Shown: positions 1 through 60,731 of the stretch, one piece after another
Layout: each line of letters starts with the position of its first letter
Position numbering within the stretch: position 1 is the stretch's first letter
From: a virus
DNA: 64,000 nucleotides
Direction: 5' to 3' (one strand)
IMG/VR virus record: IMGVR_UViG_3300045988_059940
Span: 1-64,000 of that record
The notes under the pieces: generated by a model
Told to the model about the DNA's origin: nothing
Database searches by the model: none
The model's input: only the letters and a program-made list of their open reading frames with translations
Translations under genes and position numbers: made by a program

Positions 1-3000
1 GTTCTAAAATGTTGATTTTCTAAGAAGTCAACAAGTGCTTCACATGTATCTCTGATTTCCAACCTCTAATTGTATCTACAAGACATTTTTATATACCTTT
101 GTAACATACCTATTAAATCCGCAGAAATCTGTGACGGATTTTCTAGCTACCTGGTATAATATTGTGGTATAATACCAAATTGTCTTCCGTCTGGGTATTT
201 ACCAACGGCCATAGTATGTGTATCTGTGGTATTACCTTCTGAATCTACGTTATCTGCTGCTTCGCCAGAACCTAAGTTTAAATAGTCTTGTGGAGCAATA
301 TTGATACCAACGGATTCTTTCAGATATTCTTTTGTTATTTCTAACTTTTGCCCAATTGGCTGACGTTTTATACGCCTATAAAGAGTACCAGTCTCCTATG
401 GCATAAGATATTTATCTGAATATTGACGGTTTGTCTGCTTAGCGTTAGCAAATTCCATTATCTCTAAACATGCTTCATAAAGTGCATTTAATCTAGGATT
501 TTTCTTTATTTTATTATATTGTTTAGAGTTATCGTATACATTATGTTTAGGTAATTCCGACCTACCAGTTCCATCTTCATGAAAGTTTTTATTCAATAAA
601 GCATTATCTTCTGTCTTCTCAATCCAATATTGATTTGGTTGATATTCCATGTATTTTTCTTTATCTATTGCCTAAGCTTTCTATAACCATTTATACGGGG
701 AAAATTCTTCCAATAGTGTAATGTAATTCACATTAATATTACCATACCCATATAACATAGCTTGATATAGGTTATAATCATTATCTGCTGCTTCCCACAA
801 CTTTGTCTATAAGTCTTTGTAATAATCAGTATCTACAAATTCTATAAACTTAGAAAATACTTCTTTATATTTATCACTTAGATTTTTTAAAGATTTAGAT
901 TCTGATATTTTTTTCCTACGAATTTGATACATTTGTTCATATATCTAATTTAGCAGGTTTTTAACAGACTCTGGCATCAATTCATTGTTGACTTCACCGT
1001 TTGGTGATTTAAATGGTTTTAACAGCTAATCTGAACGCTCTTTTAGGTTATTATATTCTTCACCATAGTCAATATTCTATGCATGCATGATGCGTTCTAT
1101 TTCTTTAAATACAATAGCGTCTCCGTTTTCATCTTTTTTGAATACCAGCTGTGAATTACGAGAGTTCCACTTGTTAAATGTAACTTCGTCAAACTCATTA
1201 TCTTCGCCTCGTTGCCATTTAGAAAATTCGGTCTTTCCACCACACTGTTCTATAATTGCATCAAATGCTACTTGCCAATCTTTTGTGTTTTTTGTGACGG
1301 ATTTCTTAGGGTCTTGACCGTGTTTTTTTCTAATGTTATCTAAGTCTACACGCAACTATTGAAGTTGTTTAGCTATTTCATACTCAACAGTACCTTCTAT
1401 CTTTTTATTTCCAAAGAAATCATAATCAGAGTAAAGTAGTTGTTTATTTCTCCTTAGCTTTTCTAATTGTTCAAAATCATCATCTGATAGTTTGTCAAGA
1501 TGAATATTGCCATTTTCATCTTTTATACCAGGTTTATTTAATATTGAGTTTATAGCCTCATTGTGTGATGATAATGCTTCCTTTGTAAAATAATCAACCT
1601 TTGCCCATGCGTCATAATATTCATCTATAAACTTTCTATCTGTATGTTTCTTTTTCCAATCGTTTCTTAACTTCTACCACTCTTTAAATGCTTCACTGTT
1701 TTCTTTTGGTGGAACACGATTGTCATCTTCAAGTTTTAGATTGTATTTTTTATTAATAGCTCTATTTACTTCTAAGACGTTTGCTTTATCAGCTTTTTGA
1801 AAATTACCATAATTTAACTAAGCAACAAATCTACCAGTTGGTAGACCGTCTTCATCTAATTCATATAAATCCTACAAGCTTTCACCTACCTACAAATCCG
1901 CTGCAAGTTTAGATAATTTTAACATTTTTTCACTCGCTTCAATATCTGCATCATGATTTGCTTTTGTTACAAGATGTGCTATAATACGAACTATTTCATT
2001 TGCAGAAGAGTCGGCAGAGCCTAAATATTGCTCTAAAAAACTAACATCGTCATCTAAGAATTGTTCAGTAGAGTTTATTTTATCTATATAATCCAATAAT
2101 GCTACTGAGTTAGTTTTATCTGCTACTTTCTCTAATTCCGAAATAACAAGTCGCTTCAATAGAATATTCAATGTAGATATACCAGTTGTTGTTACTGATA
2201 CCAATCTTTGTACATCTTGGTGTATTTCTTGCAGGTCTTCGTTTGTTATAGGTTCAGAATCTTTTACTTTGTCTTTGAAGTCTTGAATTATATCTTTACG
2301 ATTTGATACGTTTTTTAATAATTCATCTAATGTTTTAGCTACCTCATTGTACATTCCAATGTTACTGTGCATCTAAAACATATATTCCTTAGAGTCTATT
2401 GTTTTGCCACTCTCGTTAATTTCATCAAATTTATCAAGCTGGTCCAATATATCTGGTATGACCTACTGTAATATAGAAGTTATTGCATGATATTTACTAA
2501 CTGTGGAGCTGTTTAACATTTCTATCTAACTACGAGTAGCATTTAGTTCTTTTATCTTTTCGCTTTGTTCAAGTGATGATGTACGAATGGCATTAACTCT
2601 AATACCAAGCATGTTAGATATTGACTCAAATGATACTGTACGAACATCTTTTAGATTACGTTTTTCAGAAAATGACTTTAAATTATTACGTTCTATATTC
2701 TTTTGTGTACGTATATATTTTAGCTATTCATATACAGCTTGTGTTAATACTGTATTATAATCCAAATGATTTAGAGTAGGCAATAGGCCGTTCTTAGAAA
2801 TAATAGATTTAGAATCATTTTTTTCTGGCTAAGAGTCTAAAAAGTGTAAAAATTTTTTCTGCGCTGCCTTTATTTTTTCTTCTGTTGTGTTGAACACATT
2901 TTTATTTACTAAGAATTTAGTAAGAGAGTTTACGAAATGTTTAATTGTTGATAATAAAGAATTATCTTTATTTAACAAACCAAGTATTTCTGTTCTAATA

Positions 3001-4682
3001 GAATCATCTGTGATGAACATTGCTGCAAATTCTTTTTCATTAGATAGCGCATAAGCAACGTCATCAGAATCAAGCTGTCTGTATTTGTTAAATAGTTTTT
3101 TAGCTTTATTTGTCAACTTGTTTATAGATTTAGCAAATACACGTTCCTCTTTTGTTTTAGGATTATTTAGAGCATTTACAGTTAAAGCATGTATAATCTC
3201 ATGAAGTATCACTGTTGTGACATATCTGTGAGATAAACCTTTTAGCTATTTTTCATCAAGAATAATTATACTACTATCTTCTGTTGTAATTGTTTCTGCT
3301 AATTTTCCAAACGGTAAGTTACCAAATTTAACTGGTATATCATGTTTAATAAGTATCTCTATTAACTCACGTTGAGACTATGATATAGCACTATTGGATA
3401 ATATATCATTTAATATATCAGAAGAACTTACAGCAGAACCACTAGATAGTGCATTAAAATTATTACCAAGAAGGCTTGAACTTTCACCAACAGGTGTGAA
3501 TTGATTTATCGGCATTTGCCCTTCTTCGAATACAGTATTCAATATATCATTGTCGTTTTCATCTCTTGACACACTTACAGATTTGATATTTTTATCACTA
3601 TATGGCTATTCGATAAATCCTATCTTATTTTGTAAATCAAATATTGTATCCACAATAGGTTTAATTTGTTCATAAGAACTTTTAGGTTCAAAGCCAAGTA
3701 ACGTCAGTATATAATTCCAAATATGTTCAAACGCTGACTTAAATTTGTCAGATTCAATTGACGGTATTGTGTGCAACAATTCTGCAAATTCTGGATTAGA
3801 TACAAATTCAGCAATAAATTCATGCGCATTTGTAAATCCATATATACTTTTAGATGACTTTTGTTCTTCTTTATCATTAGACATAGATTCTTCAAGCAGC
3901 GATATATATTTATCAATGGATTTTTCCATGTTTTCATCTGCGTATAAAGCACGAGATGTTGCAGCGTGTACAAGTTCATGTAAAAGTACCTATAATCCAT
4001 TTTTAATATTTATACCATCTCTAATGAAGACAACACCAGTATTATCACCAGGATAATAAAACCCAAACAAATTGGTATTTTCTGCAAAATCAAACTTAGT
4101 TTTATATACACTAATATCACCATTATTCTGAAAATACTTGTATATTTTGTTTATATATTCTTTTGTAGTATTATCTTCTGTCAAAGCCTACAATTGTTTT
4201 AACAACGCCATAGCAGAATACGGTTTGCCACTCTTTGTAATAAGACTATCTAAATCCTGATTGGCTATTATTTTAGCGGCGTCTTTATGTATAGATTTAA
4301 GAATAGATTTATTGTTACCTTTATTTAATTCAGTATTGCTTTTAGATGTTTCTTTTCCACGTATTAATACATCAGACCAAGGTTCTCCTTCGCTTGTGAA
4401 GAAATCTTTTGTATCATCAAATTTACCATCACCACTAAACCACTTTTTAAAACTATTTTTATAGATATTTGATTTTAGACGTATTGCATTAACAATATTA
4501 CCTTGTGTTAGTTCGAGTAAATTTTTAAATAATACAGACTCAGCCCCATTCGGGGCTTTGTCTATACTATTCCCATTATTAGCCGACCATATATGATAGG
4601 CAGCTTTTTCACTTGTAGCGTTTTTTAATTCTTCAAATTCCCTTGCTACTTCGGGATTACTAAAATTAGGACATGCTATCAT
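1..4682 (-). CDS. Giant virion/ejected-type protein, N-terminal >1,560 codons only (ORF runs off the left edge); two zincin-like HExxH modules; TAG read as sense
   Basis: ATG at 4680-4682, with an in-frame TAA upstream at 4707-4709. The 8 track fragments 396..4682 share one frame. I read every gap and 1..395 codon by codon and found 24 in-frame TAG (e.g. 4188, 3990, 3606, 3378, 2829, 1890, 1077, 396, 147, 66) and zero TAA/TGA. The frame is still open at position 1. HELVH at 3966-3980 and HEIIH at 3189-3203. Confidence 0.75.
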
Positions 4683-4696
4683 AATATAATCGTTTA

Positions 4697-7600
4697 TTAT
4701 TCTCCTTTACAGTGTTTCATTGCTTCTTCATCAAATTCACTATCGTCGAATATCATCGGCTACTCTGTAATCTGCGTTTCGTTTACATCTGCTTCAACCT
4801 AATCGGTAACTTCGCTATATGTAGCACCACTAGATAATAACGATGACAATCCACCAAGTTGTGTACTTTGAATTTTTTTCACAGTATTTTCAACAGTTTC
4901 TTGCTTTGGTAAATTTGGTATTGATTCAATTGATTCTACAACTTGTGTTTGTTCAGCAAGATTGTCGGCCAATTGTTGTAATTGTTCGACTTCATTAGTT
5001 GAAGTATTAGGCTGTTTTCTAGTTGCATTGAGCTTTTTCAATAGTGTACGCAACTTCTTATTCTTAGATGAAATATCTTTCGATATAAATAATACTTTAT
5101 CTATTACGTCAAAAAGGTTTCCGTTTCTAGAAGAAGCATATACAATACCATTTGCAACATACTGTTTACCTTCTCTAATAGAAGCGTCTAATCGTTTTAT
5201 TTCTATACCACCAACTACAAGCTTTTGTAATAAGTCATTAATGAAATTATTCATCTTTATTGACCTTACAGCAGATTCTGCATAACCTGGTTTATTTAAT
5301 AGTTCTTTTTTTGCTGTTAATTGCTCATCTTTATTATCAGAATCTTCTATTAATTTTGCAAATTCATCCAATTGCTATTTTATAAACAAGTCAACTTCTT
5401 CTTTTGTAACATCAATCATGTAATCTGCCAAATCTGTCGTAATATGAATACGTGCAGGCTCTGTTGTTATATTTTGAATCTTAGATATAATATCTTCACC
5501 ATTCATAGATATATTAACAGTTTTATTTGCATGACGCTTATTTACATTTGTAGGTTCTTTGCTATTTGTAATATTAATAATTACGTCAGCCTGTGCTTGG
5601 CCACTTGTTTCTGGTTTATCTTTTGCACTAGACAGCCTTACTGTTCCAACCTTAGATGCCTATTCAACAGATGGCTTAAATACATCAAAGTTTGAAGAAC
5701 GCCTAGTTACTGGAATTTCGCCAGAATACTTTATTTCAAGCGTATATTTACCTTTTTTGTATCGTTCTACAACTTCATCTATCTTTTTACGAACAAGGTT
5801 TTCTGCTGCGTCACGTGGCAGTAGATTGTCTTCATAAATAGATGGAGTTTCGTCATTTACATATAACTCATACATATTAACTCTACCGATTCTAATACCA
5901 GCCTTTTGCACCATAATATAAATATTATGAGGTGCGGCAATAGTCAGTTTATCAGAACCTTCTTTTACATACGTACGTGTAATTTCTCCTATTTGTTTAT
6001 ACAAGAACGTAGTGCCATTCTTTCGTATTTTTATATATGGTTGACTATAATCTGTTGTAGTAAATGCAATAGGAAACTAGCTGTTACTATCTTTATCGTA
6101 AGTAGAACCAATTCGTACAGTACCGTTGGATTGTAAACCTCCATCTTTCTACATAGAAAGATATGCTGGTGATACAATAGAATCATCGTACCAATAGTTT
6201 CTAGAAATAGTATCTATTATAGCATCTACTGAACTATTTACAATATCTATATTAGACATTTCATCAGAAACAGTAGTGTTTAAGATAGCAGATAATGCTT
6301 GCGATTTATTCTTAGAACCATTTGACCTAATTAAAGCACGCTTTAATGATGTATCATACTGTCTACGTAGAGAATATGGTACAAGTTCAAAAAATGAATT
6401 TACAACATTTTGGTCATATGACGAATAATATGCATAAAAAGCTAAATCTTCTGCCAGATGTCTTATAGAATCATCTTCTGAGACTAATAATTGATTAAAT
6501 GCAGTAACTAATTTACGTTTTGTGTTACTTGTTGTATTCATCTAAGATTGTGCTAAGATAAATCTTCCAACTTTATATTTTTTAGTTTCAGTTGCCGTTT
6601 GTAAGAAGTTTAATAGTTCATTGGTAATGTCACCATTATCGTCAACTAAACCTTCGTATTTTGGATTGTCCCAATTTTTTCGAAGATTATCTTTTAGTTC
6701 AGCTACTCTCCTAAATATATCTTTTTGTTCACTAGTTCCATAAATTAAATCACGCATTCTTTGCATAACAGCATTTCTATCTCCGTTCATTGTAAAGTCT
6801 AACGGGGAAATACCAAATCTGTCGACAACATCATCAAACATACCTGCACCATAATTAGCAAGAGCATTGTATCTCATAATGTTATCTAGTGCATTTGTCA
6901 TATTTTTAATTAGATTTTTATCATAATTTTTATTATAAACCTATATTTCTCCATTGCCAGTATTTACAATAGAACTACCGAAAAACTTAATCATTGTTGC
7001 TTTAAATATATCTTCAAATATATCTGTGGCTGTAAATAGTTGCGTTTTAAGGATGTCTTTTGTATAACCAGTGGCCTTCATTAATTTATCATGTAAGAAT
7101 GTTTTATCAAAATACTCAGCAAGTGCCATTCTTGATTCAGCATCTCTATCTAACGTGTTATTGTTTTTCTTTGGTACTTTTTCTTTAAATTCAGAGTTAT
7201 TAATTGTAAATAATGTCTATGAATATCTAAATTTTGAATATGTATTTTTATAATCAATTTGTGTAGCAATGGTATTACCAAACTTTTTGGTATCAATACG
7301 TGAGTTACTAACAAGTTCTGATAAAGCTGTTGCGTATTTGTCCATATCTTCTAACGCTTTTATAGCTTTTAATTGGAATATTAAGCTATTAGCTACTTTA
7401 ACTAAATTAGAAGATGTATTATCACGAATTGACTATTTACCTAAATCTATGTCAAATACCTCTGTTTTATTATACTCAAATTTTGGTACATCTTCGCCAT
7501 ATTTCTGCCTTATTTGATAATTAGACATTGTCATAGTTTCAAAATAATTTGCAGCTGCAATTATGGTGGCACGTTGTTCTTCTGTAAATAGTTCACTATT

Positions 7601-10600
7601 TTTAGTTATCATTCCACGTAATCTGGAAACAGTTCTATTTACAACTTTTTTCAGGGCTTCTTTTCGTGCAGAAGTATAGTTATTAGAACTTTCATAATCT
7701 TCATCTAAATTCTTACCATATATACCGCCTCCATTATTTACTAAGTTTGCATAATCTTTTAATAACGGTTGAGCAAGTAGTGTAAACGTAGATAGACCTT
7801 TTCCTGCTCTTAATAAGAAGTTAGTATATTTATATGTAAATTTATTTACATTCAAACTAAATACGTATGGGTCTTTTGCTACGTCTACATTGGCGTTTAC
7901 CATAGCAGAAAGCCAGTCAGAAATTCTATTATCGTCTTGTCCATATATTGCATCTAAATCGCCAAAATCATAACCACCTTTGCCTATTGCATCTTTTCCG
8001 TAATTAAATGTAAGATGTGAATATTGAGTTAAAGCTAAGTTTGTAATGTTTAATGCAAATGGGCCAATACCAGATTTACCAGATGAAAACTCTTGTTTAC
8101 GCAAAGACTGGAATGATGGTAACAATTGGTCCATACCACCAATGTATCCTTTTCTTTTCTCTGTCAATACTGGTTTAACTAACTCGTCCTATAACATTGA
8201 AGTAATAACGTCGATAGAACCCCTAGCATTAGAATAGTTTTTATCGTCAGATATTAAGTCAATATAATGTTGTAACAACGTATTAGCATACCCGCTTGCT
8301 TCAAAGTCTTCATCACCCTCTTGTATTTTTTCACCATTATTATATGCAAGAGTTGCTATATAAAGTTTATCTACGTCAAAGTCAGAACCAGTTTGTGCTG
8401 TAAATTCTCTTGGTACAATAATTAAGTCACCAGCTTGTTCTGGTAATATATCTGCAACATGCATTGCAATCATTGAAGATACACCCTGTGTTGGTATACG
8501 ATAGGCTACACCAAATGGTTTTGCGTTGTCACCAATAATATTATTATCTAACAACCATTGGCGCATTGTGTTATAATCAGTCTGATATTCTTTTGGTACA
8601 ACAGATTTGAAGAAATTAGCACTCAATAACACTTCCGTAGAACCGTCAGCTCTGTGCCACTTCAATTCACGACCGTTATTAAATGAAGTATATCCTTCGT
8701 CTGTGATAACATCAGCGTCACCAGCAAATCCAAATACAGACTGCTGAATTGCAGTACCACCGTTAGTGTTAATATCAATAACCTCTGCATTTACAATAGA
8801 AGATATACTGTTTTCAAATACAGTACGTGATGTAAGTCCCGCTGCAACTCCACCTTGTTCAAATATACTTTCGGCAATAGCTCCAAGACCATTACTACTT
8901 ACAACTGATTTTACAAAACGTTTAACCTCTTCTTTGTCTAATTTTCCGTCTTTATAAAACCTTGCAGATATTTTAGATGCTCCTAGTTCTGTAAGTTTAT
9001 TGATGCAGCGCATAATATCAGCCCTGATTTCAGCACCTGTTTTTGGAGTAACTCCATCACGATTTAGACCATATAATTCAGAATCTTCTATGTTAGAGAA
9101 TGCTAATTTAAACATCTACGTACCAATAGCACGCTCTTCCGATTCGTGCGCATGAGTGTTTAACTGCATACGTAAATATCTTAAATCCTAAACTTCTATT
9201 GGTAGTGTATTTATGTCATCAGTAACCCTTGTGATGTCCGAACTGTAATCAATACTAGTATTACTATTTAGGTTAAACTTTTCGTTTAGTTTTGATAAAA
9301 CATTTTCAGTAGTATCTCCGCCAGCAGGAACAAAGCTTTTCTACACAGGACCAACCTTTACAGCAGATTTGAATGAAATCATATCAAGCTCATTGTCCTA
9401 TTTATTCATCCTATCATATAAAGCTTTACCAACAGATGTAGAACGTTGATATTTAAATATTGGGAAAATAGCTTGCTTATTTAGGACATTTAGGTTGATA
9501 TTTGTATTTTTAGAAAGCCGTTTTGGATTATTGTGAACATATGACATTTTTAATGGATATGCCTGAAATCTCTTAACCATTGCTGCTTTTTCTGAATCCA
9601 TCATCCATTCACCATTCTCATCGTTTTCGATAATCTAATATGCAATTTCATCACTATATCCACTTTCGTCTGGGTCAAAAGTCCATTCGCCAAGTCCAAT
9701 GCGAATCTTACGATATAATGCAGGCCTAATGAATACCTATGCATCACAAACATTTATACCTTTATATGGATTTGTCTATAACTATAATTTCGCCTTAATT
9801 ACATCTTTTTGAGTTTGAGACAAGGCATTAAATAGTTCATTAAATACTTCTTTATTAAAATAAACTTCATTTATAAGATTTTGAACAGTTGTATTTCGCT
9901 TTGTTAAAACATCATTAAGTCTTTCATATTTGCCAGTTCTAATTAAGTCTACAAGCAACTGAACTTTAAAGTTTTCTTCAATTTCTTTTAGATATGTAGA
10001 TGCTATTTCTATATCTTCTACAACAAGGTTAGTATATTTTGTAGAACCTAATGTTGGGTCCATTTTTAACTCATTTTCCGAATATTGTACCCTTATTCTA
10101 GCACCTGGTGACAATGAAGAACCTAAACGTTTAATTTTATCAGAATAAACATCATCCCAGTTTTTAACCTCAAATGTTTCGTCTACAACATATCCATTTT
10201 TCTCCTACTGAATGTGTACTTTACTTGTAGAAGAACCGTATTTTTCTTTATATAACGCTGGGTCACCTGTAAATATCTTTTCCACCTCTATTGTAGATAT
10301 TATTGAGTTTACAGTATGATTAGCTATTAAAGAGAATGTAGCATGTGTTATAGCATCTTCATTATCATATGCAGAATCAGTTTCTGTTATATTGTTTTCA
10401 CCAAGAGTAGTAATGTATTTATCTAACATGTGTTCTGGTAGCCCAATCGGTAGATATGAATCTGTTGACCTGTTGTATTTTACTAAATTTAAAGGTCCAT
10501 CTTTTGATAATTTATCCAACTCCTAGTATGTCTTTTTTATAAGCTAACTATTAACATTATCTAATAGTTCATTTGACATACTGCTTCCAGAAATACACCT

Positions 10601-13600
10601 GTTCTTCAAATTCTCTAAGTATTCACGAATTAGTTCAAATCCATCAAGATTATCGGAACGCTCTGGTATGAAGTCTATATTGATGTTCTCATAAATGTTA
10701 TCTCCACTTGCAGATTTATTTTTAGCTTTACCAGCTTCTATTTTTTTCTACAATTGAAACAGTGCATCTAAGTGTTGATTTAAATTTGCTCCATTTTCAT
10801 CAAATACATCATACATATATCTAAATAGTCCACCATTTCCACCAAACTACATTCTTCCATTTTCTACTTTACCGTGAAAGTTAGCAAGTCTACTGTTTGG
10901 TGATTTTACAATCGTCTATATGTGTTCTTTACTGTAATACTATATAAGAGAATTTAATTCGTCCATAAAATATCCAGCAAAAATATTCAATGTTCTTGAT
11001 GAAAATCTATTATAACCAACATGTTCATTGGTCAACTGTTGAGTTTCTTCTTGTGCTTTCTTCTCTATATCTTGCCTCAATTGAGACTGTTCGTCTAATG
11101 AATAAAACCAATTTCTTGCCTTTTTTCTCCATTGATATTTATTCTCTCCCTCCTCAATTGGATGTTCTTTACCAAATTCATCATAAATGTATTTATTTAT
11201 AATGCTACGTACAGGACCGCAGAGTATTGTATCGTGAGAAAGCTAGATATTTGGCGACTTGAAAGAATACCAAGTTTTCTTATCAGCCATCGTTGGTAGA
11301 ATTATATTATCTAATTCAGTCATTGTCATCTTAGCTATATAATCTTCCATTGGAGTTATACCAAAATAATCTGCTCCGACCTAATTGTTTGCATCTTCTA
11401 TACCAACAAAAGCATTAATTTTAATCCATGTATTATGGTTTTTAATGTCCGCTTTACTAGCAGCACCAGCTAACAGCGAATGTCTACAATATGGAGATTT
11501 CTGCATTTCTCGTAAAAACTTCTTATCTTGTTGCATTTCTACAATACGGTCAGTTAAGAAGTTATTTTGACCAACTGGATATAATGTTTCTCCGTTAGCT
11601 CCCCTAACGCTAAATTCAGCAGAAGCTGGGTGTACAGAGTTCCAAGCAATTGCTAATTTTGCAACATCTGATGTTTCAGGATAATTGTTAAATATTTCAT
11701 CAATCTGACGCTCTTTACTTCTTCCATAGGTAATTAGTACGTCTTTGTTTGAAGACTTAATAAGTTGACCTATGATAGAACCTAAACCACCAGTAGAGTT
11801 TTCTGTAAGCAATCCTTTTAATCTATCAATTTGTTGAATTGGCGATACAGCATCATCATTTGCTAATAACATATCCAAAGAACCATTGTCTGCCTAAATT
11901 CCTAACATATTTAAAAGCTGAATAACTCTTGCTCTAAATCCATCTTCTCCAAATAATAATTTAGTAGCCTTCTAATTACTTAGCTGTGCTGTATTCTTAT
12001 TTTTTTGGTTTTGTGAATATTTAGATAATTCGTTTTTCAGAGGAATATATACTTTTTGTAATGATTCTATAAACTTAGGATTAACAACAACATTTCCACT
12101 GTTTTTGTCAAACATAGACATTCCATTTGTCATTAGTGTTTGTGACCAACGTCTTGGTATATTTCTAAAAGCTTTTAGTGCATTGCTGTCATTCAGAGTC
12201 CAAACTCTATATTTATCATCAACCACACCTAAATCTTCTTCATAATCAAAATTTTCAAGCTATATAGACAATGGGTCGTATGAATCCTGTGCACTTCGTT
12301 TTGGGTCGTTCAACTAAACCTTAGCAACCTATGGTTTACTTGAATTGATTGTTGAGAAAATCTAACTCCTAAGTTCTATATCGCCATGTTCTCCGTCATT
12401 ACTTAATTGCTATATTTTATCATATACTGCTGCAAAGAACCAATCTGTTTTAGCAAGATTCTATATCATACCCATCATTGATGTTTCTAGGTATCTTCCT
12501 TTCTTATCAACAGCATCTAGTGACTACGCAGTATATAAATTTTCCAATAGTTTGTTCCACACCTCATCAAACGGAACACTCATTGGCGAACCATATTTAT
12601 CTAACATCTATACATCATCGTATGTACCGTCTCCGTTCCATTCACGTTTCATTTGTGGTATAGACCTAAAAAACATTTTAGCTCTGACTGCTGCACCATC
12701 TTTCTTAGATAATGATAAATCATATATATCCCATACATTGTCTGGATGGTTCTCTTTATCAGTAGCATCGTCAGCTATTGGTTCTCCGTCTTTCTGTATT
12801 TGTTCACGCTTCTTCATCTTTACTCGTATTCCTAAATCTGAAAATGCTTCCGCAACAGCGTGACGCATAACTTCTGGATTCTTTTTTAACACATTCAAGA
12901 TGTCTATTATCTAATCGTCAGATGCCATGTCTAACATATCATCAATTGTGTCGTTTATGATATTCGACTTCTTTGATATTAATTGTCTCATGGCCTTTAC
13001 GGTCGATATGTCTTGTGTTTGAATGATTCTATTAACAACAGCTTCCATTGCTTCAAATACCTATTGGTGGCTAGTAATTGATTCAATACTAGTTATTGTA
13101 TCACTAGCTCCCAATACATCATAATTTATAGCAAATGCACCATTTTGATATGCTTTAACAAACTGTTTTGTAGAATTAGAGTCTAGTTTTTTGGATGCGT
13201 ATTTACCACTTTCGATGTTCTTAAATGCTTGTCTATATTCTCTACGATTACTAAATAGTGATACTACAAAGTCTAAGATGTCATTAAATAATTTTTTAAT
13301 CTTACCAGACATAGATTTATCATATGCACCTTCCATGTACATTCTAAAATCTTCTGCCATAGCTTCTTCTACTTCTTTTATTGTAACATCTTTTTTATTT
13401 AGCTAAGGATGTGATTTGACATAAGACCTATAAATATCTTCACGTGTTTTGCTGTCGTGCATAAGTAAGTTAACATAATGCCATGCTTCATGATAATGTA
13501 GACCACTTCCACCATCTTCTGATAGTTGAATCATTCCTACCATTTCGCCAGCTATTTTATCAACAACTACTTGTGTTACACCAAACACTTCTACTCCATC

Positions 13601-16600
13601 CATAGAGCGCATTACAGCATCTCTTACTACAATTTTATGCTCTGGTATTCCCAATTTGTCAGTAAGCCATAATTTCGCTTCTTTTTCATTCAGTTTACCT
13701 TTTTGTTCCTACGTAGAGTATACACCACTTACAGGCCTTGCCCATTCATACATCTGATTTCTACCTACAAATACATTACCAGTACCATCGTTATATAAAT
13801 CTAAAAACAACATACCCTTTTTGAAGGCCCACATTGTTTTAATCATCGCTTCGGCTGTTGAACGCATAATAATGCTATCTGGTGTATATGTTGCTTCTGG
13901 ATGAAGTTTCTTATATTCTGCTAAGAACTCAGCTATTCGCTGTTTAGCTAAATCTAATGCATACTGTTGGCCTTTTGATTCATCTGGCATCCTAAATACT
14001 ATACGTTCACGCATTCCACCGTGACTTTTTGGTCCAGCTTGTTCGTTGAGTTTAGCGAAAAGCTATTTGCGTTCGTCATCGGTTTTTGCCATCTTGAATC
14101 CACGAGCCATACCAGCGTTCATTAGTCTTTCTCCAATTTGTTCTGTCAACATTGCGAATTTTATATCACTAGCTACTTCAAATTTAACATCACTTGCAGC
14201 TGTTTCCTTAATTGTAGTAGTTGGAGTGGATGTATTTATAATCTATTCAGTTTTCTAAGCAACTTTACCACCTTCAACCTAAACACCGTTTGCGAAAACA
14301 AATGGATTTTCAAACACGCGCTCGGTAGTATCTGTTTGTAGCTTTTTGTTTTTTAATAACCAAGCACCTGTTTTAAATTGTTTAGGGAATAGTTCACCAT
14401 ATTCAATTTTGTAGAAGTCTGACAATTTGAATGATAATTGAGGACATCCTGCAATACATATAGTTTGATTAATATATTCTTCCAGACTTTCACGTCCTTC
14501 ACCATATAAATCTTCCATATGTTTTAAGAACGCAGAAATACCATCTGTTGCAGTAAGGTCTACTAACAAATCAGTATTGACAAAGTCTTTATCTATATTC
14601 CAGTGCATCTAAGATGCAATAGCATGTACAGCAGAAAGTTTATTTTCTTTTGCAGCCTCACTATCTCCGAATATTTCATCATGTGTAAATTTAGCCAAAT
14701 AATATCCACCATGTGGGCCCTTCATTCCAATGTGTAGTTTCATAATACCATCTTCATCTGGCCCATAATACAGCTGCTTAGCAGCAAATGTGTTTATTAA
14801 ATTACCAGTTGTAATTGGCTGATTTTGCAATAATGTATTTTTACCACTATGTATAAAGAACTCAGCTACCTCTTCGTTTAATTCACTAGATACACCAGTT
14901 TGGAATCTCCCCATTAATATATGTAAGATAACTTCGGCAGCACTTGGTAAATACCCATCTTTATTTCCATTTACCCATTGTTTGTTTTCTTTATCGTATT
15001 CCAAACATAGTTTTAGATTTTTCTTATTGTTAAGATAAATAGTTTCTTGCTTTCCGTTAACAACTCGAACTTGGGTGTCAAACTTTTCTTCTCGTAGCAT
15101 TACTGGTATTTTGGTATCAGAAGATTCTGACAATGGGTCAACCATCCAATAAATCTTACCCGATAATCCTCTACCTCTAAACTTAGTATTTGCTTGACTA
15201 TCAAAAAGACCACTTATACTAAAAGCTGGGCGACCGAAAGCTCCTTTACCAAGACCAAACGAAATCTCACCTTCTTTTAGTTTTTCACTCAATTCTTCTA
15301 TATCCATGTCTGTATCTACAACAGGCCTGTATACAGAATTTATACCATCTTCATCTTTTTGTGTCTAAATTTTACCATTACTTTGTACAGTTTGTTCTGG
15401 TACAACATCTGTCCTAGGTTTGTTTGGGAATATATATACTATTTTTCCGTCTTTTTCAGTCTTGGTTAAATATGCATCTATAATTTGATTTCTAAACTCT
15501 CTTAGTTGATTTATTTCTTGGTCAATCTTAGACTGTGTCATCACAATAGCACCAGGTTTAGCATAAAACTGCCTAGCTTTTGTTATAAATTGACCTCTTA
15601 TCCTCTTCCTCTAAGATGCATCTTTTATATAGTCTTCTTGATTAAAATAATCAGTACTAACTGGGTCATTTGACCACCATCTGTCAAATTGTCTAGGGTC
15701 ATTACCTTGTGATACCCACCAAGATTGTGCATATTCTTTTGCTTTATTGTATACAGCTTCATTGTATGCATCAATTCTCGCTGATTTACTTAAATTAACA
15801 CCAGACCTACCTATTTTATCCCAATCTGCACCCTACATTAACATTTCTTCTCTACGTATCTTTTCGTTATTTATATGATACGTTTTTCCAGTTTTTGTAT
15901 TTGTAGAAATAGTTGTTCCAAGACCTCTAAGAGCTGTAATATAACACTTTTCATTATCTTCTATCACAAGAGCAACGGTTAGTGCATCTCTTGGGTCTCC
16001 AATTGAATTTTTAGATTGTTCGGATTGTGTTACTATATAATAACGTTTCGTTGATTTTAACCAACCCCTTCTTGTAAGTTTCTCGGCAAGCTCTTTACCT
16101 ACACCTATTTCTTTATTTAATTTGACGTCTTTTCCATCTACTGTCAACTTCATTGGTTCAGTAGCAAGCGGGTCAAAGAACATAGTCTAACTAATAAATG
16201 TATATCTATGTTCGTCTGTTATAAGCGTTGGGTCATCGTTGTTGTCTTCTCCTTCTGGTAAATCATTGTGAGGTATATCACCCGTTAAATCTACATTAAA
16301 TAGGTCTAACTCATCACGTACTTGCTTTTCAACGTCTGTTGGCATTTTTTTGCCATCTAATAACAATTCACCATCTTCTGTTTCAGACAATCTAGTATAG
16401 AAGTTTTCATCAGAAAGTAAAAGGTCTTCAAATGTAGCTTGTTGTACCTCTACTGCTGCATCATCAACAACATTTCCACCTTCTACGATAATCTCACTAA
16501 TAACCTCCTAGTCCTACTTTTGCGCATCGTCTATATCTTTCTAAAATTCAACATCTTCAACAGCTTCTTCTATGTCGTGTTCGACTTCTTTTACCGAATA

Positions 16601-19600
16601 ATCTGTTATAGTATTTGATTTTGGACTAATCACCTATACACTATTTCCGTCAGTCTTAATGGTGGTATTATTTACAGGCTCTTCCAATTGAGATTGGTGA
16701 GATTCGTACTTATTAGAAGTCAATGGAGCTACATCAACATCTCCACTAATTGTGAATGTAGAGATTTTATTACCATCTTCATCTACTGTATCTTCGCGGG
16801 TTATATAATATTTTCCATCTAAGCCGTTCTCATTAGTATATTCTTGTAGTACGTCACCACTTTTCTTTGACATCAATATTGGTAACCAGTCGTCAATACC
16901 ATCAAATATAGGAGTGCTTTCAGTATTTTTAGATTTCTTGTCTTCTTTTACTTCCTACTTTATATCTTTTATTGTACTTGTTGTAACACTAGGCTGCAAT
17001 GGCTCACCAGTAGTTGGGTCAATCACTACATCTTCATTTGATTGCTGTTCACCATGTGCCTCTTCTTGGCCCTATTCTAAATCTACAAGTTCTTCGTTTT
17101 CTGCTTGTAACAAGTCTTCATCAGTAGCAACGGTTATATCTTTACCTTCTTCTTGTGCTTTTCTTTGTCTTTCGACAATTTCAAGTCTTTCAGATATAGA
17201 TTTTTGTTTTTTATTACGGTGATTATATTTCTCAGCAAGGCCTTCTCTTGCCTCACCTTCTGCTGATTTTTCAATATCGCTCTATAATACATCATCAGAA
17301 GCTTGTTCCTATTGTTCGTTTTGTACAATTTCCTATTCAGCCTGTTCCTGAGATTCTGGTGTTTGTATTCCAATTTCCTCCAATACTTCTTGTGTATTTT
17401 CGATAATTTTACGAGCTATATTATGTCGTTTTACGGTTTTCTTTGCTCTATCTAATGCCATTTTAAATATAGCATCTCTACCAGCTTGTAGCTTTTTTTG
17501 ATTTTTATCTGACGTTAGTGCAGAAACGCTGTCTTCTTGTGACACACTTCCGCCATCCATTTGTTCCCAATGGTTAATCCAATCGTCATATGGTGTTGGC
17601 TCTTTGTTCTCTGTACCAAATATTGCGTTTTTAATCTGTTTTGGGTCAGCTGCAATGCCTCTGTACATATATGACAACAATTGTTGTGGTAAATATAGAG
17701 CGGAATTAAGAGATATATTAAACAGCAATTCATCAAAACTTTCATCGTCATCCAACATGAAATCTTCAAATAGCGCACTATATCCTCCACGATAGCCTTG
17801 CGTTGCTTTCGCTTCTCTTTCTTTTGCTGTTTTTAGTTGTTCATTTATACCATCTATTGTACCAAGCAAAGAGTCAATATCTAAATCTACACCTGTGTGT
17901 TTTTTAATAAACTCTAATCTAGACTTTTGATTGCGTAACTTTTTTGATATATCAAGAAGCTGCTTTATTCTCCTACTTTCTAAATATGCATTAAATCTTG
18001 CAGAAACATAATCCTACCTTGCACGTTGAGATTTTATATAAGAATTATACGCAGCCTCAGCATAGTCAGCCCTATCGGTATTATTTTTAAATACATCTTT
18101 TAGTTTTGCTGTTATTGCTTCTTCTGTTTCATCTTCTACACTTTCAGCCTGCGATTTAGCATAATTACGTATTGCTTTATTGTTTATAAATGAATCTTCC
18201 GTTTTAAGATGTGTCTATTGATATTTATCAATATTTTCCTTCTTATTTATCTGTCGATACAGTTCGTTTCGTGACGCTTCATTGTTCCAAATACTCAATG
18301 CAACATCGTTGTAACTAAGATTTTTACTATTATAAAACTCTTTACTACGCTTTATTGCACGCATTACTGATTTGTCTGATTTGAAGTCATCAAATGTTTT
18401 AAATCTAGAACCTACATTTTCTGCATGATTATTTATTGCTTTTAGGTATTGGTCAAAATAATCACTATGTGTTTGTACAAATTTGCCTAATGATGGATTT
18501 TGCTTTACAAGTTCATCTCTCTCTTTTGTACTCAACGCTGGGTCTAGTAATAGATTTATGATGTTTCTGTAAGCATTTTGTTTTGCACCTAGTTCTTCGA
18601 GTTGTGAATTAAGCAATTCTTTATTTTCAGCAGCATCTACAACACGCTTAGCTCCTTCTACAACAAAGGCCTTGTGTTGTTCAGAACCACGCTTTATTCC
18701 ACTTGCTTTCATCATTTCGTGTACAAGTGGATTATGATACATATCATATGCTGCTTCTGCTAACTTTATGTCTGCATCTATGTATTCCTTTTTTATTACA
18801 GAGTTTTCTTCATCCACGTTGTCTTTTACCACTTGTAGAGACTCTTTTACATCTTTTAGACGAACACCTTTATTATATGCATCATACATCAAAGAAATAT
18901 GAGCCTAGTCTTGTGCATTAGCATAGTTGTTTGCAATCATTTTTGCAACAGCGTCATCAGATTTAAGTCCTTTTATATATCCACGTAGATTATCTTCGCT
19001 AGATGTAAGATTTGAAGCAGCTCCCATTGCACTAGAAAACATCATTGACGAATAAGCACCGATTAAAAACGACTTCCTAATTTCATCAGTACCATTGTCT
19101 GGGTCGCCAGGGTTTAATCCCAACACATTTAATGCTGCATTAGATATAAGTCCTGTGTTGTTTATCAATTCAGGTATACTAAACACACTAGTACCACGCT
19201 TATAATTGTCATATTCACCACGCTTATAACGGTTCGAAAGCATTGTCTGTTGTGCTTCTTCAAGACCTTCTGATGCACCTTCTAATACTAAAAGCTTTAC
19301 TAAGTCTTTACCATACTTTGCAGTTCTATTAAATGTAAGTGCAAATTTAGGCGCATCTTTTTCTAAGAACTGTTTTGTAACTCTTGAAATTGAATTGTCA
19401 ACAAACCCAGTTATTTTATCAGCATTTTTACCTAACGCTTTTGTCACACCACCGTTTACAAAGCTTTTTACAGCTTTACCACTATAATTCATAAACGGAA
19501 GTATTTGAAGGTAATCAACAGCAGCAAGTGCATTGTTTGCATTTATAAGTTTGTTTATACCTTTTCTAGCATCAGATTTTGCTTTGTCAAATGCTTCATC

Positions 19601-21205
19601 ACCAGTATTAATATTATAAGCTATACCTGCTTTTACAATCTATTCTTCTGATAGATTTTGAGCATCTATACCGTGTCTTTGTAATTCATTGCTTATTGAC
19701 TTTATTACTTGATTGATATTAGCACCGTTTTTATATGCAGTTTCAAGCACACGTTCACCCATAGCTTGAATTGCCTCTAACCCAGTTTCGTCTTTTCTTG
19801 ATTGTATAGCAGCATTAAGACCTAATGCGACAGAACCTCCTTTTACAGCAGCGTTTATGGCTTCTGCATACTTTCCAGGAGACATTCTTGCTGCAACAAC
19901 TTCTCCAAGACTACTCAATAGTCCGTTTGCAGTAACAGCTTGTGCTTGGTGTTTAAATAAACCTATTGTAGATGCGGTTTCGGCAAACGTATATAACGGA
20001 TGAGTTAATGGATTTGTATTGTTTGCTTCTTGCTCTTTCTTATACCACTCAGGTATCTCTGGGTCATATGCAGTTACCCTAAAATCTGGTAAATTAAATT
20101 TTGCACCCAAGATATTATAAGTACCTCCAAAATTTATTTTTCCATCTTTTAAGCGCTTACTATCTAACGCTAGCGCGTGTGTATATTCATTTAATTCCCT
20201 ATCCTTTTTCGCTGTAAGCTCATATAATTCACTTCTGTTGAGTGAAGTAGGTAGTTCGTGTTTATTGAGCTCAGAGCCTTTATATAGCTTTGTAAGAAGA
20301 CCAGATGAAACTGGGTCATTATAATCAAGATTTTTTAACGCATTTCTAGTAATTTGACCTTGTAAACCAGTAATGTTTGCTTTATCTAAAAATTGTGCAG
20401 CTTCTGTCAATGTCCTTGTTGCGGCATTAGAAGCAATTTGTGCAGCGAAATCTATTGGCATAAACAAAGTCTGTACTGCTGATTTTACATTGTTCCACCA
20501 ACCATCACCAAATTTAGGTTTTGATATATCAACATCAGTTAATGCCATTGTATTAACTAATGCTTTATCCATCATGTCCATTTTAGATGTGTCGAACATG
20601 TGTCTCGCAATTACATCGTGCGTTTTACCTTCTCCTAAGAAATAATCATCATATCGTTTTATAGCATTTCTAACATCAGCTATTTGTGCATCAATTTGCT
20701 GTAAAGCTAATATATTGTTGTTTCGAATATAATCATTTCTTTTATATAAAAGTTCATTTAAGGATTCGTTTTTAGCATAATAATCTTTTATAGCATCAAT
20801 GTCATCTAGTTCTTGCTTTGTTCTCTATATATTAGCTTGGTCTGAATCTACATCTTGGCTGGTTATCTTATCCATCATAAACCGATATGTATATTTCAGA
20901 TTAGATGGTAAATTTGCAACTTCGTCTAATATATGTGAATTGGTACTTGTAATAAAATCGGCCGCCTTTTCATACCAAGCTTTTTCTTCTTCTGGCTTTT
21001 TGTATACATAAGGTTTATGACTAGCATTTACACCAGAATATTCTAATGGTACATTGTCTATACTTGGGTCCTATGCGCCGCCGTCATAACGTGATGACTG
21101 CACGGCTGCATTAGACCTATTAATTGAATTTATATTCCTAAGTTTATTTAAATTGGCAGCACCATGCTCAGATAAATAAATTTGTTTTTGTTTCTTTTTT
21201 GCCAT
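4697..21205 (-). CDS. Single giant ORF of 5,502 codons; virion RNA-polymerase-like (DxDxD) polyprotein as in crAss-like phages; TAG read as sense
   Basis: ATG at 21203-21205 lies 2 nt after the upstream gene's TAA (21208-21210) and follows an in-frame TAA (21212-21214). The true stop is TAA 4697-4699. All 25 track fragments 4799..20599 are in one frame. I scanned every inter-fragment gap and found 66 in-frame TAG and no TAA/TGA. DFDVD at 8369-8383 (context AQTGSDFDVDKLYIATL). HEAWH at 13478-13492. The polymerase call rests on the DxDxD motif and gene context only. Confidence 0.7.
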
Positions 21206-21207: not shown

Positions 21208-23118
21208 TTATTTAGAACCTAATGATGATGAGAATCTATCAGTAGCATAATCATTAGCGGTATTTCTTCCAAACATACCACTATCGTATCCATAGTTAGT
21301 ATTTGCATCGTTGAAACCATAATCGTTTTGGCGCATTCTTGTTACAGGTATATGTACATATTGTATGTCACGAGCTACTGACTTACCGTTGCTTGCAACT
21401 TTACCATCCTTTGTATATAATGTAAGACCAAGACTGCGTGCTACATCTACTGGTTCTCCTCCAACTTCTTTTACAAATTCATTCAAGTCTGAAAGTGGAA
21501 TACTAGCCATACCATTAATATCAATCATCTAATTTCCACCACGAATTGGTATTGCAGCAGTTGTAGTATTCTGATTCACTAAATATCCAGTTAAACCTCT
21601 GTTCTACATCCAATCGTTGAACTTATATGCCAGACTTTGTTTATTTGGTTTATATCCAGCAACTTGTAATTTACGTATTGGACTAAACACAACTGTTTTA
21701 TCTCCCATATTTATAGGATAATATTTACCAGTACCACCTGGATATTTAACCGTTTGACCTTGACCAGATAATTCTTTTAATGCAGTTGTCTAGTCTGCAC
21801 CAGGTATCGTTTTTGTTGTATATCTGTTATATAACTCTGTTGCATTTCGTATTGACACACTTCTTGGAGTAGCTATTCCGTGACCACTTGCTACTTTATT
21901 AATTTGCCTAATCAGTGTTTCTGATGGTAAAAGTTGATTATTTCCATCAACTTTAAATACACCATTCTTGACAGCATATTCAACACCCTATTGCCCAACT
22001 CTTTGCCAGAATGAAGCAATTCTATTTGCATATCCTTTTGATTGTCTACCAGTTGCAGATGTACTTCTTCTAGCTGCTTCTTCTTTCCAATAATTTACAA
22101 TCTGTCCAACCGTATTTCTAAAATTAACATTATCACCAGTACCATCTCCGTTTATACCAACAGATTGGTTATATTTAGCGTTTGAACCAAATTGTTTTTG
22201 GGTAGTCCACGAAGGCAATGGTTGTTGTACAGTTGGCTGCTATGAACCTTGTAGCGCTCTTGCATGGCGTTGTTTTAGATTTTCTAATGCAATTTGACGT
22301 TTAAACTTTAATGCTTCTAGGTCATATTCATTTACCTTATTGGTAAGTTTTAGCTTTTCAGCGTTAGCATTTCTTATATTATCCATTAGTTGTGCAGTAA
22401 CCTACTCATTGTTTGGATTTTCTATACCCTTCTGTAATAATTGTTGTTTTGCTAAATACATATTATATCTACCAAGGTCACTGTTGAGAAAATCTGGTAT
22501 TTGTGAACGCATTGTATTATTTAACTCACGGTCTCTAATACCATACCAATCATAACCTCCCTTTTTGTACAAGAAAGATGGTTCCAGTTGGTCAAACCAT
22601 TTGGATGTTAATTCATTTAAATCTCTATATACACCAGGAGATTGCCTTTCCCACATACCGTCGTTTACAGTACTCCAAGTATCTAGTGTTTTACCGCCAG
22701 TTAACATGTTTTCAAATTCTGGATTCCACTTGCCATCGGCTATCAGTTTGGCCTTCATGTCTAAGTATTTCTGTGCAGTAACAGACGACTACCTTAATTT
22801 GTTTATAGTTCCAGTAGGCATGCTGTTAATTAGTCTTGATATAGTAGCTCTACCCTACTGACTACGTAGTGGGTCAATTCCCGCATCATATAGACTATTT
22901 ATCGTATCTTGTACTTTATTGGTGACGTTTTGATTATACCAATCCATATCTGCCTATATTGGAGATACAAAATCACCGTATTCTTTTTTAAAATCTTTTA
23001 CCTACTGAACACCTTTTTCATACATATCCTTGGCAGCATTAATAGATGCCATCATGATTGATGTATCGTAAATGTCCCTAGTAGGCAATTGTATCCACTA
23101 ATCGTTTGCGTATATCAT
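21208..23118 (-). CDS. Hypothetical virion/ejection protein, 636 aa
   Basis: ATG at 23116-23118, four nt after the upstream TAA; TAA stop at 21208-21210. Fragments 22402..22758, 21988..22218 and 21208..21528 are co-framed. Gaps scanned: 11 in-frame TAG, no TAA/TGA. No motif recognised. Confidence 0.65.
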
Positions 23119-23122
23119 AATA

Positions 23123-60705: not shown

Positions 60706-60731
60706 GTATTATTTTATATTAATTTATATAG

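Follow-up and report, generated by a model that had tools for sequence, protein, structure and literature searches.

The minus strand of a 64,000-nt stretch of viral DNA (positions 1 to 64,000 of IMG/VR record IMGVR_UViG_3300045988_059940; hereafter the window) carries a 16.5-kb reading frame in which TAG is the only internal stop codon. This raises the question of whether so long a frame is one gene, and what kind of protein it would encode.

The reading frame and its TAG codons

A single ORF was originally predicted between an ATG at 21205 and a TAA at 4697, with 66 TAG and no other stop, and our recount agrees. The reverse complement of 4697-21205 comprises 16,509 nt, begins with ATG, ends with TAA and contains 5,502 sense codons; the stops within the frame are 66 TAG, 0 TGA and 0 internal TAA. 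In the two other frames of the minus strand TAA and TGA make up 8.1% of codons, so that a run of 5,502 codons free of both would occur by chance with a probability of ~1e-202. The gene, its downstream partner and a tRNA relevant to its decoding are located as follows.

4697..21205, minus strand: giant gene, 5,502 codons plus TAA, ~622 kDa, 66 TAG as Gln; predicted gp47-like plus gp50/gp66-like fusion
3..4682, minus strand: partner gene on the downstream side, truncated at the window edge; 1,560 codons or more, 24 of them TAG
60731..60819, minus strand: 89-nt tRNA with a long variable arm and the anticodon CUA; candidate amber suppressor for the 66 TAG codons

The prediction had read TAG as a sense codon, and this reading is supported by both alignment columns and codon exchanges. 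Nearly all of the long ORFs on the minus strand from position 3 to position 60038 require it. Where TAGs fall at invariant columns of standard-code homologs, 13 of 28 align with Q, against a background of 2.5%, and 10 of the 12 substitutions involving TAG in a comparison with a 97%-identical relative are exchanges between TAG and CAG or CAA. The sequence comparisons thus indicate that TAG is decoded as glutamine (genetic code 15), an assignment for which there is proteomic proof in related phages (PMC9523058). A read-through of 95% per codon would leave only ~3% of chains finished after 66 TAG codons, and near-complete reassignment must therefore be assumed. The long-arm structure of the tRNA(CUA) is atypical for a glutamine tRNA; it is the only suppressor seen within the window.

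The continuity of the frame was also found in a second, independent contig from IMG/VR (102,295 bp), which is collinear with the window and 96.75% identical across 19.1 kb (window 1-19112). In that assembly the frame is unbroken for 4,805 codons up to the first TAA; it differs from the giant gene by 110 amino acids and a single codon indel. We conclude that the 5,502 codons form one genuine gene, carried by a crAss-like gut phage and legible only if TAG is read as glutamine.

Giant homologs and gene order in related phages

Nine related phages, of which eight belong to the Suoliviridae, have collinear single ORFs of 4,328-5,794 codons. Most Suoliviridae giants are also TAG-recoded; three of the nine phages use the standard code, and since their giants contain zero TAG, the continuity of the ORF is independent of recoding. 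The giants of the Suoliviridae (delta crAss-like) phages cr7_1 (KNV53_gp32, YP_010112776.1) and cr273_1 (KNV62_gp35, YP_010113556.1) are collinear over their full length with the window protein, at 34-35% identity across about 4,500-4,900 aligned residues. Residues 174-5083 of cr7_1 gp32 (5,443 aa) align with aa 169-5130 of the window protein, and the two starts resemble each other (MAKKKQKQIY in the window, MANKNKKTFTY in cr7_1). The order of genes around the cr7_1 giant is shared by six further genomes, including the following.

cr273_1: giant of 5,794 aa, single CDS, same gene order
cr118_1: giant of 4,946 aa, single CDS, same gene order
cr50_1: giant of 4,774 aa, single CDS, same gene order
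cr115_1: giant of 4,493 aa, single CDS, same gene order
cr10_1: giant of 4,460 aa, single CDS, same gene order
cr109_1: giant of 4,328 aa, single CDS, same gene order

The phage is related to the family Suoliviridae, which has no cultured member (PMC10136315), with Oafivirinae closest, and its giant comes from a different species or genus than those of cr7_1 and cr273_1. Megablast of the giant gene against GenBank phages gave no match, and the best match of the catalytic segment was to Dulem virus 42 (52% identity). In cr7_1 and some of its relatives an insertion of ~80-90 aa resembling an alpha-CTD precedes the catalytic loop; it is absent from this giant.

The shared order in the Suoliviridae runs from a virion protein of ~1,500 aa through two genes of ~600 aa each to the giant and then a partner of 1.4-2.0 kaa. 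Its upstream part is recognizable in the window.

21208..30084, minus strand: upstream syntenic virion/cargo genes, three ORFs with matches to cr7_1
21208..23130, minus strand: ORF matching cr7_1 gp31
23123..25180, minus strand: ORF matching cr7_1 gp30 and gp29
25147..30084, minus strand: ORF matching cr7_1 gp28, phi14:2 gp71 and crAss001 gp44

On the downstream side, the large ORF that had been reported to follow the giant and leave the window was confirmed. Its ATG at 4682 lies 14 nt past the TAA of the giant, and it encodes a homolog of phi14:2 gp65 ('RNAP associated', zincin-like), crAss001 gp49 and cr7_1 gp33, with two HExxH motifs at aa 235 and aa 494.

It had been asked how the length compares with catalogued proteins. 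The size is already known, as RefSeq and GenBank hold Suoliviridae proteins of 4,328-5,794 aa as single CDS, and the literature describes such fusions ('single huge polyprotein'; RNAP genes 'up to ~6000 aa'). Each giant has exactly one HEAxH motif followed by one DFD[VI]D motif; the two lie 1,703 aa apart in the window protein and 1,475-1,876 aa apart in the giants of eight relatives. A library search found 37 further representative clusters with HEAxH and DFDxD in one chain. In the full-library search the same domain occurred in 29 clusters with a length of 5,000 aa or more (the longest 6,581), and library-wide 17 clusters equal or exceed the giant in length. Giants like this are a recognized hallmark of the phage family, and the gene is therefore ordinary for its group, for which giant RNAP-containing proteins, fusion of neighboring cargo genes and late-gene TAG reassignment are already known.

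A polymerase module joined to a gp47-like half

The giant protein was divided into the following parts.

17366..21205, minus strand: N-terminal module, aa 1-1280, with its best-conserved core at aa ~400-800
16226..17365, minus strand: acidic low-complexity linker, aa 1281-1660, poorly conserved, pI ~4.1, 20-28% D+E
14186..16225, minus strand: middle module, aa 1661-2340, moderately conserved among Suoliviridae
13106..13708, minus strand: conserved HEAxH domain, aa ~2500-2700, homolog of the crAss001 gp47 C-terminus, with a putative metal site resembling that of a minimal gluzincin
5906..12925, minus strand: module of the virion RNA polymerase (homologs phi14:2 gp66 and crAss001 gp50), aa ~2761-5100
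8369..8383, minus strand: DFDVD catalytic loop, aa 4275-4279, aligned with DFDID of gp66
4700..5905, minus strand: C-terminal tail, aa 5101-5502, weakly conserved

A scan of the whole protein against PHROGs gave 0 families, and a Pfam scan gave one sub-threshold match, which was disregarded; the N-terminal module (aa 1-1280) is without a Pfam or PHROG match. Acidic stretches had been noted at about 16.2-17.3 kb and are borne out by composition, with an Asp plus Glu content of 20-28% across aa 1201-1700.

The DFDVD motif at 8369-8383 had been taken for the catalytic loop of a crAss-type two-barrel virion RNAP, and alignment with 6VR4/gp66 supports this. The reference is phi14:2 gp66, an experimentally characterized virion RNA polymerase (PDB 6VR4; Drobysheva et al.). 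A phmmer search matched 6VR4 chain A directly at aa 3613-4489 (nt 7739-10369; E 1.5e-26). A profile built from the nine giants matched phi14:2 gp66 across residues 92-1788 (E 2.9e-68) and crAss001 gp50 (E 2.5e-32), and its sequence alignment is unbroken across gp66 953-1669 (E 2e-54). By the definitions of the gp66 paper this segment contains the Connector (1095-1238), DFDID (1361-1365), the bridge helix and the trigger loop, and the homology accordingly spans all four elements. TGSDFDVDKLY of the giant pairs with TGSDFDIDKMY of gp66, the motif being invariant in the nine giants. These alignments identify the C-terminal half (aa ~2760-5100) as a predicted two-barrel DNA-dependent RNA polymerase of the gp50/gp66 type. 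The phi14:2 gene occupies the same genome position as the giant, with gp65 or its homolog next, but gp66 stands alone at 2,180 aa, whereas the giant has ~2,750 additional N-terminal residues in one chain.

Directly N-terminal of the gp66-like part, the nine-giant profile matched crAss001 gp47 at residues 2098-2211 (E 1.2e-15). This region contains HEAWH (aa 2572-2576, nt 13478-13492) and EEAMAEDF (nt 13346-13369). The HEAxH and EExxA[ED]xF motifs lie 36-41 residues apart and show little or no variation among the nine giants, crAss001 gp47 and 15 of 17 database matches. In crAss001 gp47 (2,341 aa) the corresponding HEAFH...EENMAEGF domain is C-terminal and aligns with aa ~2510-2680 of the giant. 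As the HEAxH domain also ends gp47, the giant gene appears to be a fusion of a gp47-like with a gp50/gp66-like gene, and its N-terminal half (aa 1 to ~2750) can be classed by this homology as gp47-like, ending in the conserved HEAxH...EExxAExF domain.

The crAss001 proteins fit this arrangement in length. The 2,412-aa gp50 aligns with the RNAP half and has DFDVD at residue 1483; were gp47 and gp50 joined, HEAxH and DFDxD would be ~1,667 aa apart, compared with 1,703 aa in the giant. Both are virion proteins by mass spectrometry (PMC10172136), but they are encoded by two genes on opposite strands of a standard-code genome, whereas the giant is one code-15 chain. An hmmsearch comparison of the N-terminal 2,500 aa of the giant with phi14:2 gp67 and the rest of crAss001 gp47 detected no similarity, so orthology of the N-terminal half rests on position and the shared C-terminal domain. 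The phi14:2 gp67 protein, encoded upstream of gp66, is without an HExxH motif.

HEAWH had been called a zincin motif. The motif and its conservation stood, while the link to a zincin family did not: no zincin emerged when 17 homologs of the domain were scanned against Pfam, or when the PDB was searched by profile. AF2 models were made from database homologs standing in for the window sequence. The domain of homolog P0015 (pLDDT 71.6) was modeled as a helix, a three-stranded sheet, the HExxH helix and a Glu helix. HEAxH and the downstream Glu motif both fall on predicted helices, where they may serve as metal ligands, the Glu as the third. A Foldseek search of this model against the PDB gave a best E of 0.037 with TM 0.15 and no zincin; the top matches, tyrosine phosphatases, were dismissed as noise (TM 0.15). 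Matches of the model in BFVD were weak, to IrrE-like and SprT-like minimal metalloproteases (E 0.02-0.14). For a second homolog, P0011 (560 aa), AF2 gave a poor model (pLDDT 49), and the Foldseek result from it is meaningless. Because neither profiles nor folds gave a significant match to any known family of zincins, we did not assign the HEAxH domain to the zincins; from its motifs, we hypothesize that it works like a minimal zincin.

Delivery, cleavage and alternative readings

We estimate at roughly 85% the probability that the locus is one code-15 gene whose ~622-kDa product, a gp47-like protein fused to a gp66/gp50-like RNAP, is delivered as virion cargo. The giant would be synthesized late in infection, once the amber suppressor renders TAG readable, and packaged into the capsid as cargo. 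It would then pass through the tail partly unfolded, before or together with the DNA, and transcribe the early genes. Packaging, ejection and early transcription are suggested by homology with phi14:2 gp66 and crAss001 gp47, gp49 and gp50, and a virion location is on record for the orthologs (PMC10172136; bioRxiv 10.1101/2020.03.07.982082).

A comparable strategy, in which a very large polymerase-bearing protein is packed in the virion and delivered for early transcription, is described in the literature on N4-like phages (Schitoviridae; vRNAP of ~3,400-3,500 aa) and on P23-45 (two-barrel RNAP of 5,002 aa). In P23-45, according to the published description, the RNAP is fused to the tape measure protein, whereas the giant is fused to a gp47-like cargo protein. 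No sequence relation of the giant to the N4-like vRNAP or the P23-45 RNAP was found. The N4 virion RNAP is of the T7-like single-subunit type.

Delivery of the giant as a single chain is, in our judgment, somewhat more likely than not. The chance falls somewhat short of even that it is instead a true polyprotein. A cut near aa ~2700-2800, after synthesis or ejection, would then release the RNA polymerase from the gp47-like protein, with the HEAxH domain of the giant itself or the downstream zincin-like gp65 homolog as the protease. The N-terminal region that blocks the cleft and keeps gp66 self-inhibited may be lost through such a cut as well. The placement of HEAxH...EExxAExF directly before the RNAP module in all nine giants, its presence in 15 of the 17 database matches, the predicted fold of the domain with its faint IrrE-like and SprT-like resemblances, and the separateness of the two halves in crAss001 are consistent with cleavage, and the authors of the gp66 study describe the fusion as 'likely cleaved' and bring up activation by proteolysis (bioRxiv 10.1101/2020.03.07.982082). 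Against it, the zincin link is not significant in Pfam, PDB-sequence or Foldseek-PDB searches, the fusion is stable throughout the family, no cleavage-site motif was identified, and other giant virion RNAPs are described in the literature as single proteins of ~3,400-3,500 residues. Moreover, crAss001 gp47 keeps the same domain at a free C-terminus, so the domain is not merely a cutter of fusion junctions. More specifically, HEAxH...EExxAExF, which ends gp47 in the Steigviridae and stands directly before the polymerase in the Suoliviridae, may represent a minimal metalloprotease of a kind not yet classified. It would switch on the virion polymerase, acting in trans in crAss001 and, within the fusion, in cis, by cutting close to the junction or taking off the cleft-blocking region after ejection. 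We regard this as unlikely; if true, the fusion would amount to a transcription cartridge that is complete in itself and self-activating. What the junction domain does bears on how crAss-type virion polymerases switch from a self-inhibited packaged state to an active one.

Two readings in which the 5.5-kaa protein is never made, or the frame is not real, had been raised as grounds for doubt. That several independent genes share one frame, each with its own internal promoter or start, has in its favor the module boundaries, marked by the acidic linker (1281-1660) and the ~2750 junction, and the occurrence of the halves as separate genes in Steigviridae. We consider it very improbable, as the nine homologs of 4.3-5.8 kaa, three of them standard-code, have no TAA, TGA or frame change between modules, 37 further clusters keep both motifs in one chain, and the adjacent genes of the block are all set apart by stops and frame changes. 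A scan for internal promoters found no enrichment of sigma-70-like sites (86 against 95.5 ± 9.9 expected), a count that leaves Bacteroidetes-type and phage promoters outside its scope, and terminator-like hairpins on the coding strand were only weak. Erasure of genuine stops by assembly or sequencing error deserves next to no weight: the window is probably a metagenome assembly, to which a general caveat applies, but the frame is kept in the independent collinear contig, distant homologs share the architecture, and the chance probability given above is vanishingly small.

For the cargo fusion that we favor, the chief value is in annotation, since a single code-15 ORF recovers a ~622-kDa virion polymerase fusion. 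The nearest public relatives are deposited as dozens of fragments of 170-530 aa because their genes were called with the standard code, and word-indexed homolog searches gave fragments only. The labels of these fragments include 'hypothetical protein', 'capsid protein' and 'RNA polymerase subunit alpha'.

Reading frame and genetic code of the giant gene

The original prediction of a giant ORF on the minus strand was correct in every coordinate and count (frame, TAG codons, motifs, acidic stretch and downstream ORF). The frame contains 5,502 sense codons, among them 66 TAG, with no TGA and no internal TAA, and its product has 20–28% Asp plus Glu across residues 1201–1700. On this strand, 8.1% of the codons in the two remaining frames are TAA or TGA, giving a chance of ~1e-202 for a 5,502-codon run lacking both.

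4697–21205, minus strand: giant ORF (reverse complement 16,509 nt, ATG start, TAA end)
13478–13492, minus strand: HEAWH motif, aa 2572–2576
8369–8383, minus strand: DFDVD motif, aa 4275–4279
aa 1–1280, minus strand: N-terminal module
aa 1281–1660, minus strand: acidic linker
aa 1661–2340, minus strand: middle module

Such a frame could arise from an assembly error that removed genuine stops, or could consist of several independent genes that merely share a frame. The first explanation is at odds with IMG/VR contig IMGVR_UViG_3300008139_000007 (L014), an independent assembly in which the frame is kept for 4,805 codons up to the first TAA, with 110 amino acid differences and one codon indel relative to the window protein. 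Against the second, GenBank and RefSeq Suoliviridae carry collinear single CDSs in the same place and gene order: cr273_1 (5,794 aa), cr7_1 (5,443 aa), cr118_1 (4,946 aa), cr50_1 (4,774 aa), cr115_1 (4,493 aa), cr10_1 (4,460 aa) and cr109_1 (4,328 aa). Residues 169–5130 of the window protein align with cr7_1 gp32. Dulem virus 42 (PP511876.1) has a homologous frame of ~5,634 codons at 7833–24737, free of TAA and TGA when TAG is read as sense. None of these nine giants, the window protein included, has an in-frame TAA or TGA, and three (cr118_1, cr10_1 and cr50_1) also lack TAG. A scan for sigma-70-like promoters, a class that does not cover Bacteroidetes-type promoters, gave 86 sites against 95.5 ± 9.9 expected, and a terminator scan of the coding strand of the giant gene found nothing notable. 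In view of the intact L014 frame, the collinear homologs and the unremarkable scans, both explanations are very unlikely, and the ORF stands as a single gene.

L014 is a public contig of 102,295 bp, 96.75% identical to window positions 1–19112; it is probably from the same species, and suggests a likely full genome size of ~102 kb. The GenBank "complete genome" of Dulem virus 42 splits the giant homolog into dozens of short hypothetical proteins, one of which is labeled "Capsid protein" in UniRef.

Reading TAG as sense turns minus-strand positions 3–60038 into a tight run of long ORFs, and coverage by ORFs of at least 150 aa is 66 kb, versus 27 kb with the standard code. The identity of TAG was examined in the nine-giant alignment, using columns identical among its three standard-code members: 13 of 28 TAG codons in these columns aligned with Gln, against a background of 2.5%. 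Between the window and L014, 10 of the 12 substitutions involving TAG were exchanges with CAG or CAA, one of them four residues before DFDVD. TAG is freely exchanged with CAG/CAA between these genomes, with 11 events counted in ~6,400 codons. These comparisons indicate that the phage uses genetic code 15, with TAG read as Gln; this assignment and the single conserved ORF are firm. Code 15 was predicted for delta-group crAss-like phages (PMC7886860) and demonstrated by metaproteomics (PMC9523058).

The sole amber-suppressor candidate in the window, which leaves ~38 kb of the genome outside, is the following:

60731–60819, minus strand: tRNA with anticodon CUA, 89 nt

It is odd for a Gln acceptor in having a U discriminator and a long variable arm of type-II-like form, though the reading of TAG as Gln is clear. 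Over 66 TAG codons, read-through would have to be near complete (0.99^66 ~0.5; 0.95^66 ~0.03), so the suppressor state of the cell would gate synthesis of the giant protein, in line with the proposed delay of late-gene expression by recoding (PMC9523058).

Fusion of a gp66-like virion RNA polymerase to a gp47-like protein, assigned by homology

Pfam and PHROG scans of the giant protein returned zero family matches. A phmmer search of the PDB matched gp66, the virion RNA polymerase of Cellulophaga phage phi14:2 (6VR4, E 1.5e-26), aligning TGSDFDVDKLY with TGSDFDIDKMY, as expected from the original reading of DFDVD as a crAss-like virion polymerase signature. A nine-giant profile matched gp66 residues 92–1788 (E 2.9e-68) and crAss001 gp50 (E 2.5e-32). 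The gp66 span takes in the Connector between the two double-psi beta-barrels (1095–1238), the catalytic DFDID (1361–1365), the bridge helix (1529–1559) and the trigger loop (1598–1636), as numbered in the gp66 paper. Conservation among the giants is highest at aa 4200–4500 (41–53% identity). By sequence homology, the C-terminal half is a counterpart of gp66, a biochemically and structurally characterized virion DNA-dependent RNA polymerase.

cr7_1 and several database relatives (P0053, P0055, P0059) carry an insertion of ~80–90 aa some 50 aa before the catalytic loop, flagged in fragments of relatives as PF03118 (RNAP alpha C-terminal-domain-like helix-hairpin-helix). Unlike cr7_1, the window protein lacks it, at aa 4224–4227 (about nt 8525–8536).

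Each of the nine giants has exactly one HEAxH, 1,475–1,876 aa ahead of DFDxD. It sits in a conserved block of ~170 aa (G.xYHEAxH.V.LL, then a gap of 36–41 aa and EExxA[ED]xF), and 15 of 17 database homologs have both motifs. In an alignment, crAss001 gp47 ends at its C-terminus in this same block (HEAFH at residue 2157 of its 2,341), and the nine-giant profile matched that end at E 1.2e-15. The gp47-like block occupies profile positions 2648–2772, and the gp66-like part follows directly from 2841, whereas crAss001 encodes gp47 and gp50 separately, on opposite strands. The giant gene is accordingly assigned by homology as a gp47-like and gp50/gp66-like fusion. Homology and profile searches detected no relatives outside Suoliviridae for the rest of the N-terminal half, comprising the N-terminal module, acidic linker and middle module.

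Mass spectrometry identified crAss001 gp47, gp49 and gp50 as "RNA polymerase-associated" cargo proteins of the virion (PMC10172136); the junction domain is homologous to one of them, gp47, and the giant gene keeps a conserved position in the cargo/transcription gene block. Judging from its orthologs, the giant protein would be made late in infection, packed in the capsid, extruded partly unfolded through the tail, and would then transcribe early genes. The window gene is a real, fused giant virion-RNAP gene under code 15, another example of a type already known in Suoliviridae-type crAss-like phages.

The original prediction did not say whether proteins of this size were already catalogued. 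They are: the window protein falls within the 4,328–5,794 aa of the GenBank and RefSeq CDSs, and Guerin et al. described giant ORFs of up to 15 kb as possibly fused RNAP subunits. A phmmer survey of 1.84 billion representative proteins with the HEAxH domain gave 100 hits, with 66 of them reaching 1,500 aa or more, 49 reaching 4,000, 29 reaching 5,000, 17 reaching 5,502 and 5 reaching 6,000 (maximum 6,581); 37 had DFDxD 1,200–2,200 aa after HEAxH. The window protein is mid-distribution in length among these hits. In a word-indexed collection its closest relatives were all fragments of 170–530 aa, because they had been called with the standard code.

The HEAxH domain and possible cleavage

The pairing of HEAxH with EExxA[ED]xF fits a gluzincin-type metal site. 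As a stand-in for the domain, we modeled the 194-aa homolog P0015 (40% identical to the window protein) with AlphaFold2 (pLDDT 71.6, pTM 0.68), which gave a helix, a three-stranded sheet, the HExxH helix and a Glu-bearing helix. The domain matched nothing in Pfam or in a PDB profile search, and Foldseek of the model against the PDB returned unrelated folds (best E 0.037 at TM 0.15). Significant BFVD matches were fragments of other crAss giants, and minimal metalloproteases of the IrrE-like and SprT-like kinds appeared only at E 0.02–0.14. The predicted zincin motif is thus present and conserved, but has no significant zincin family match by profile or fold; membership is therefore withheld, and "zincin-like" is a hypothesis at the level of the motif.

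Cleavage of the giant chain is favored by the conserved protease-like motif at the junction and by the expectation of the gp66 authors themselves. The need for it is called into question by the persistence of the same domain on unfused gp47, by the stability of the fusion across the family and by the failure of the searches to find a cleavage site or a family match. We consider cleavage possible, at somewhat below even odds, and it is unlikely that the junction domain is an unclassified protease activating the polymerase.

Neighboring genes

3–4682, minus strand: downstream ORF, ATG at 4682, 14 nt after the giant stop; 1,560-codon frame with 24 TAG, leaving the window
23123–25180, minus strand: stop-to-stop frame of 686 codons matching cr7_1 gp29 and gp30

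The large downstream ORF was present as predicted, with at least 1,560 codons. It matched cr7_1 gp33 (E 1e-165), phi14:2 gp65 ("RNA polymerase associated protein", E 3.8e-14) and crAss001 gp49 (E 3.6e-8). Two of the three crAss-type cargo genes are fused in the window phage, and the third (gp65/gp49-like) is separate. HExxH occurs twice in the downstream protein (LLHELVHAAT at aa 235 and ILHEIIHALT at aa 494), and gp65 orthologs carry a zincin-like protease domain according to the gp66 paper. Two separate stretches align with adjoining parts of gp65, and the stretch with the aa-494 motif covers the region bearing the single HEIMH of gp65. The zincin-like region may have been tandemly duplicated.

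The 23123–25180 frame represents another fusion or else a pair of genes that share it; in cr7_1, gp29 (glycine-zipper "peptidoglycan-associated protein") and gp30 are separate genes. At 37787–40178 on the minus strand, two adjoining ORFs lack any TAG; nearly all other long minus-strand ORFs have several. One of the pair, of 510 aa in the highest-GC stretch of the window (0.40), may be the major capsid protein, and the pair would be consistent with the recoded codon being avoided where expression is strongest. The upstream part of the structural block, at 48547–60038 on the minus strand, holds two other very large ORFs that contain TAG (2,616 and 1,227 codons); in cr7_1, the upstream part of this block has gp22 and gp20, which are large tail-associated genes.
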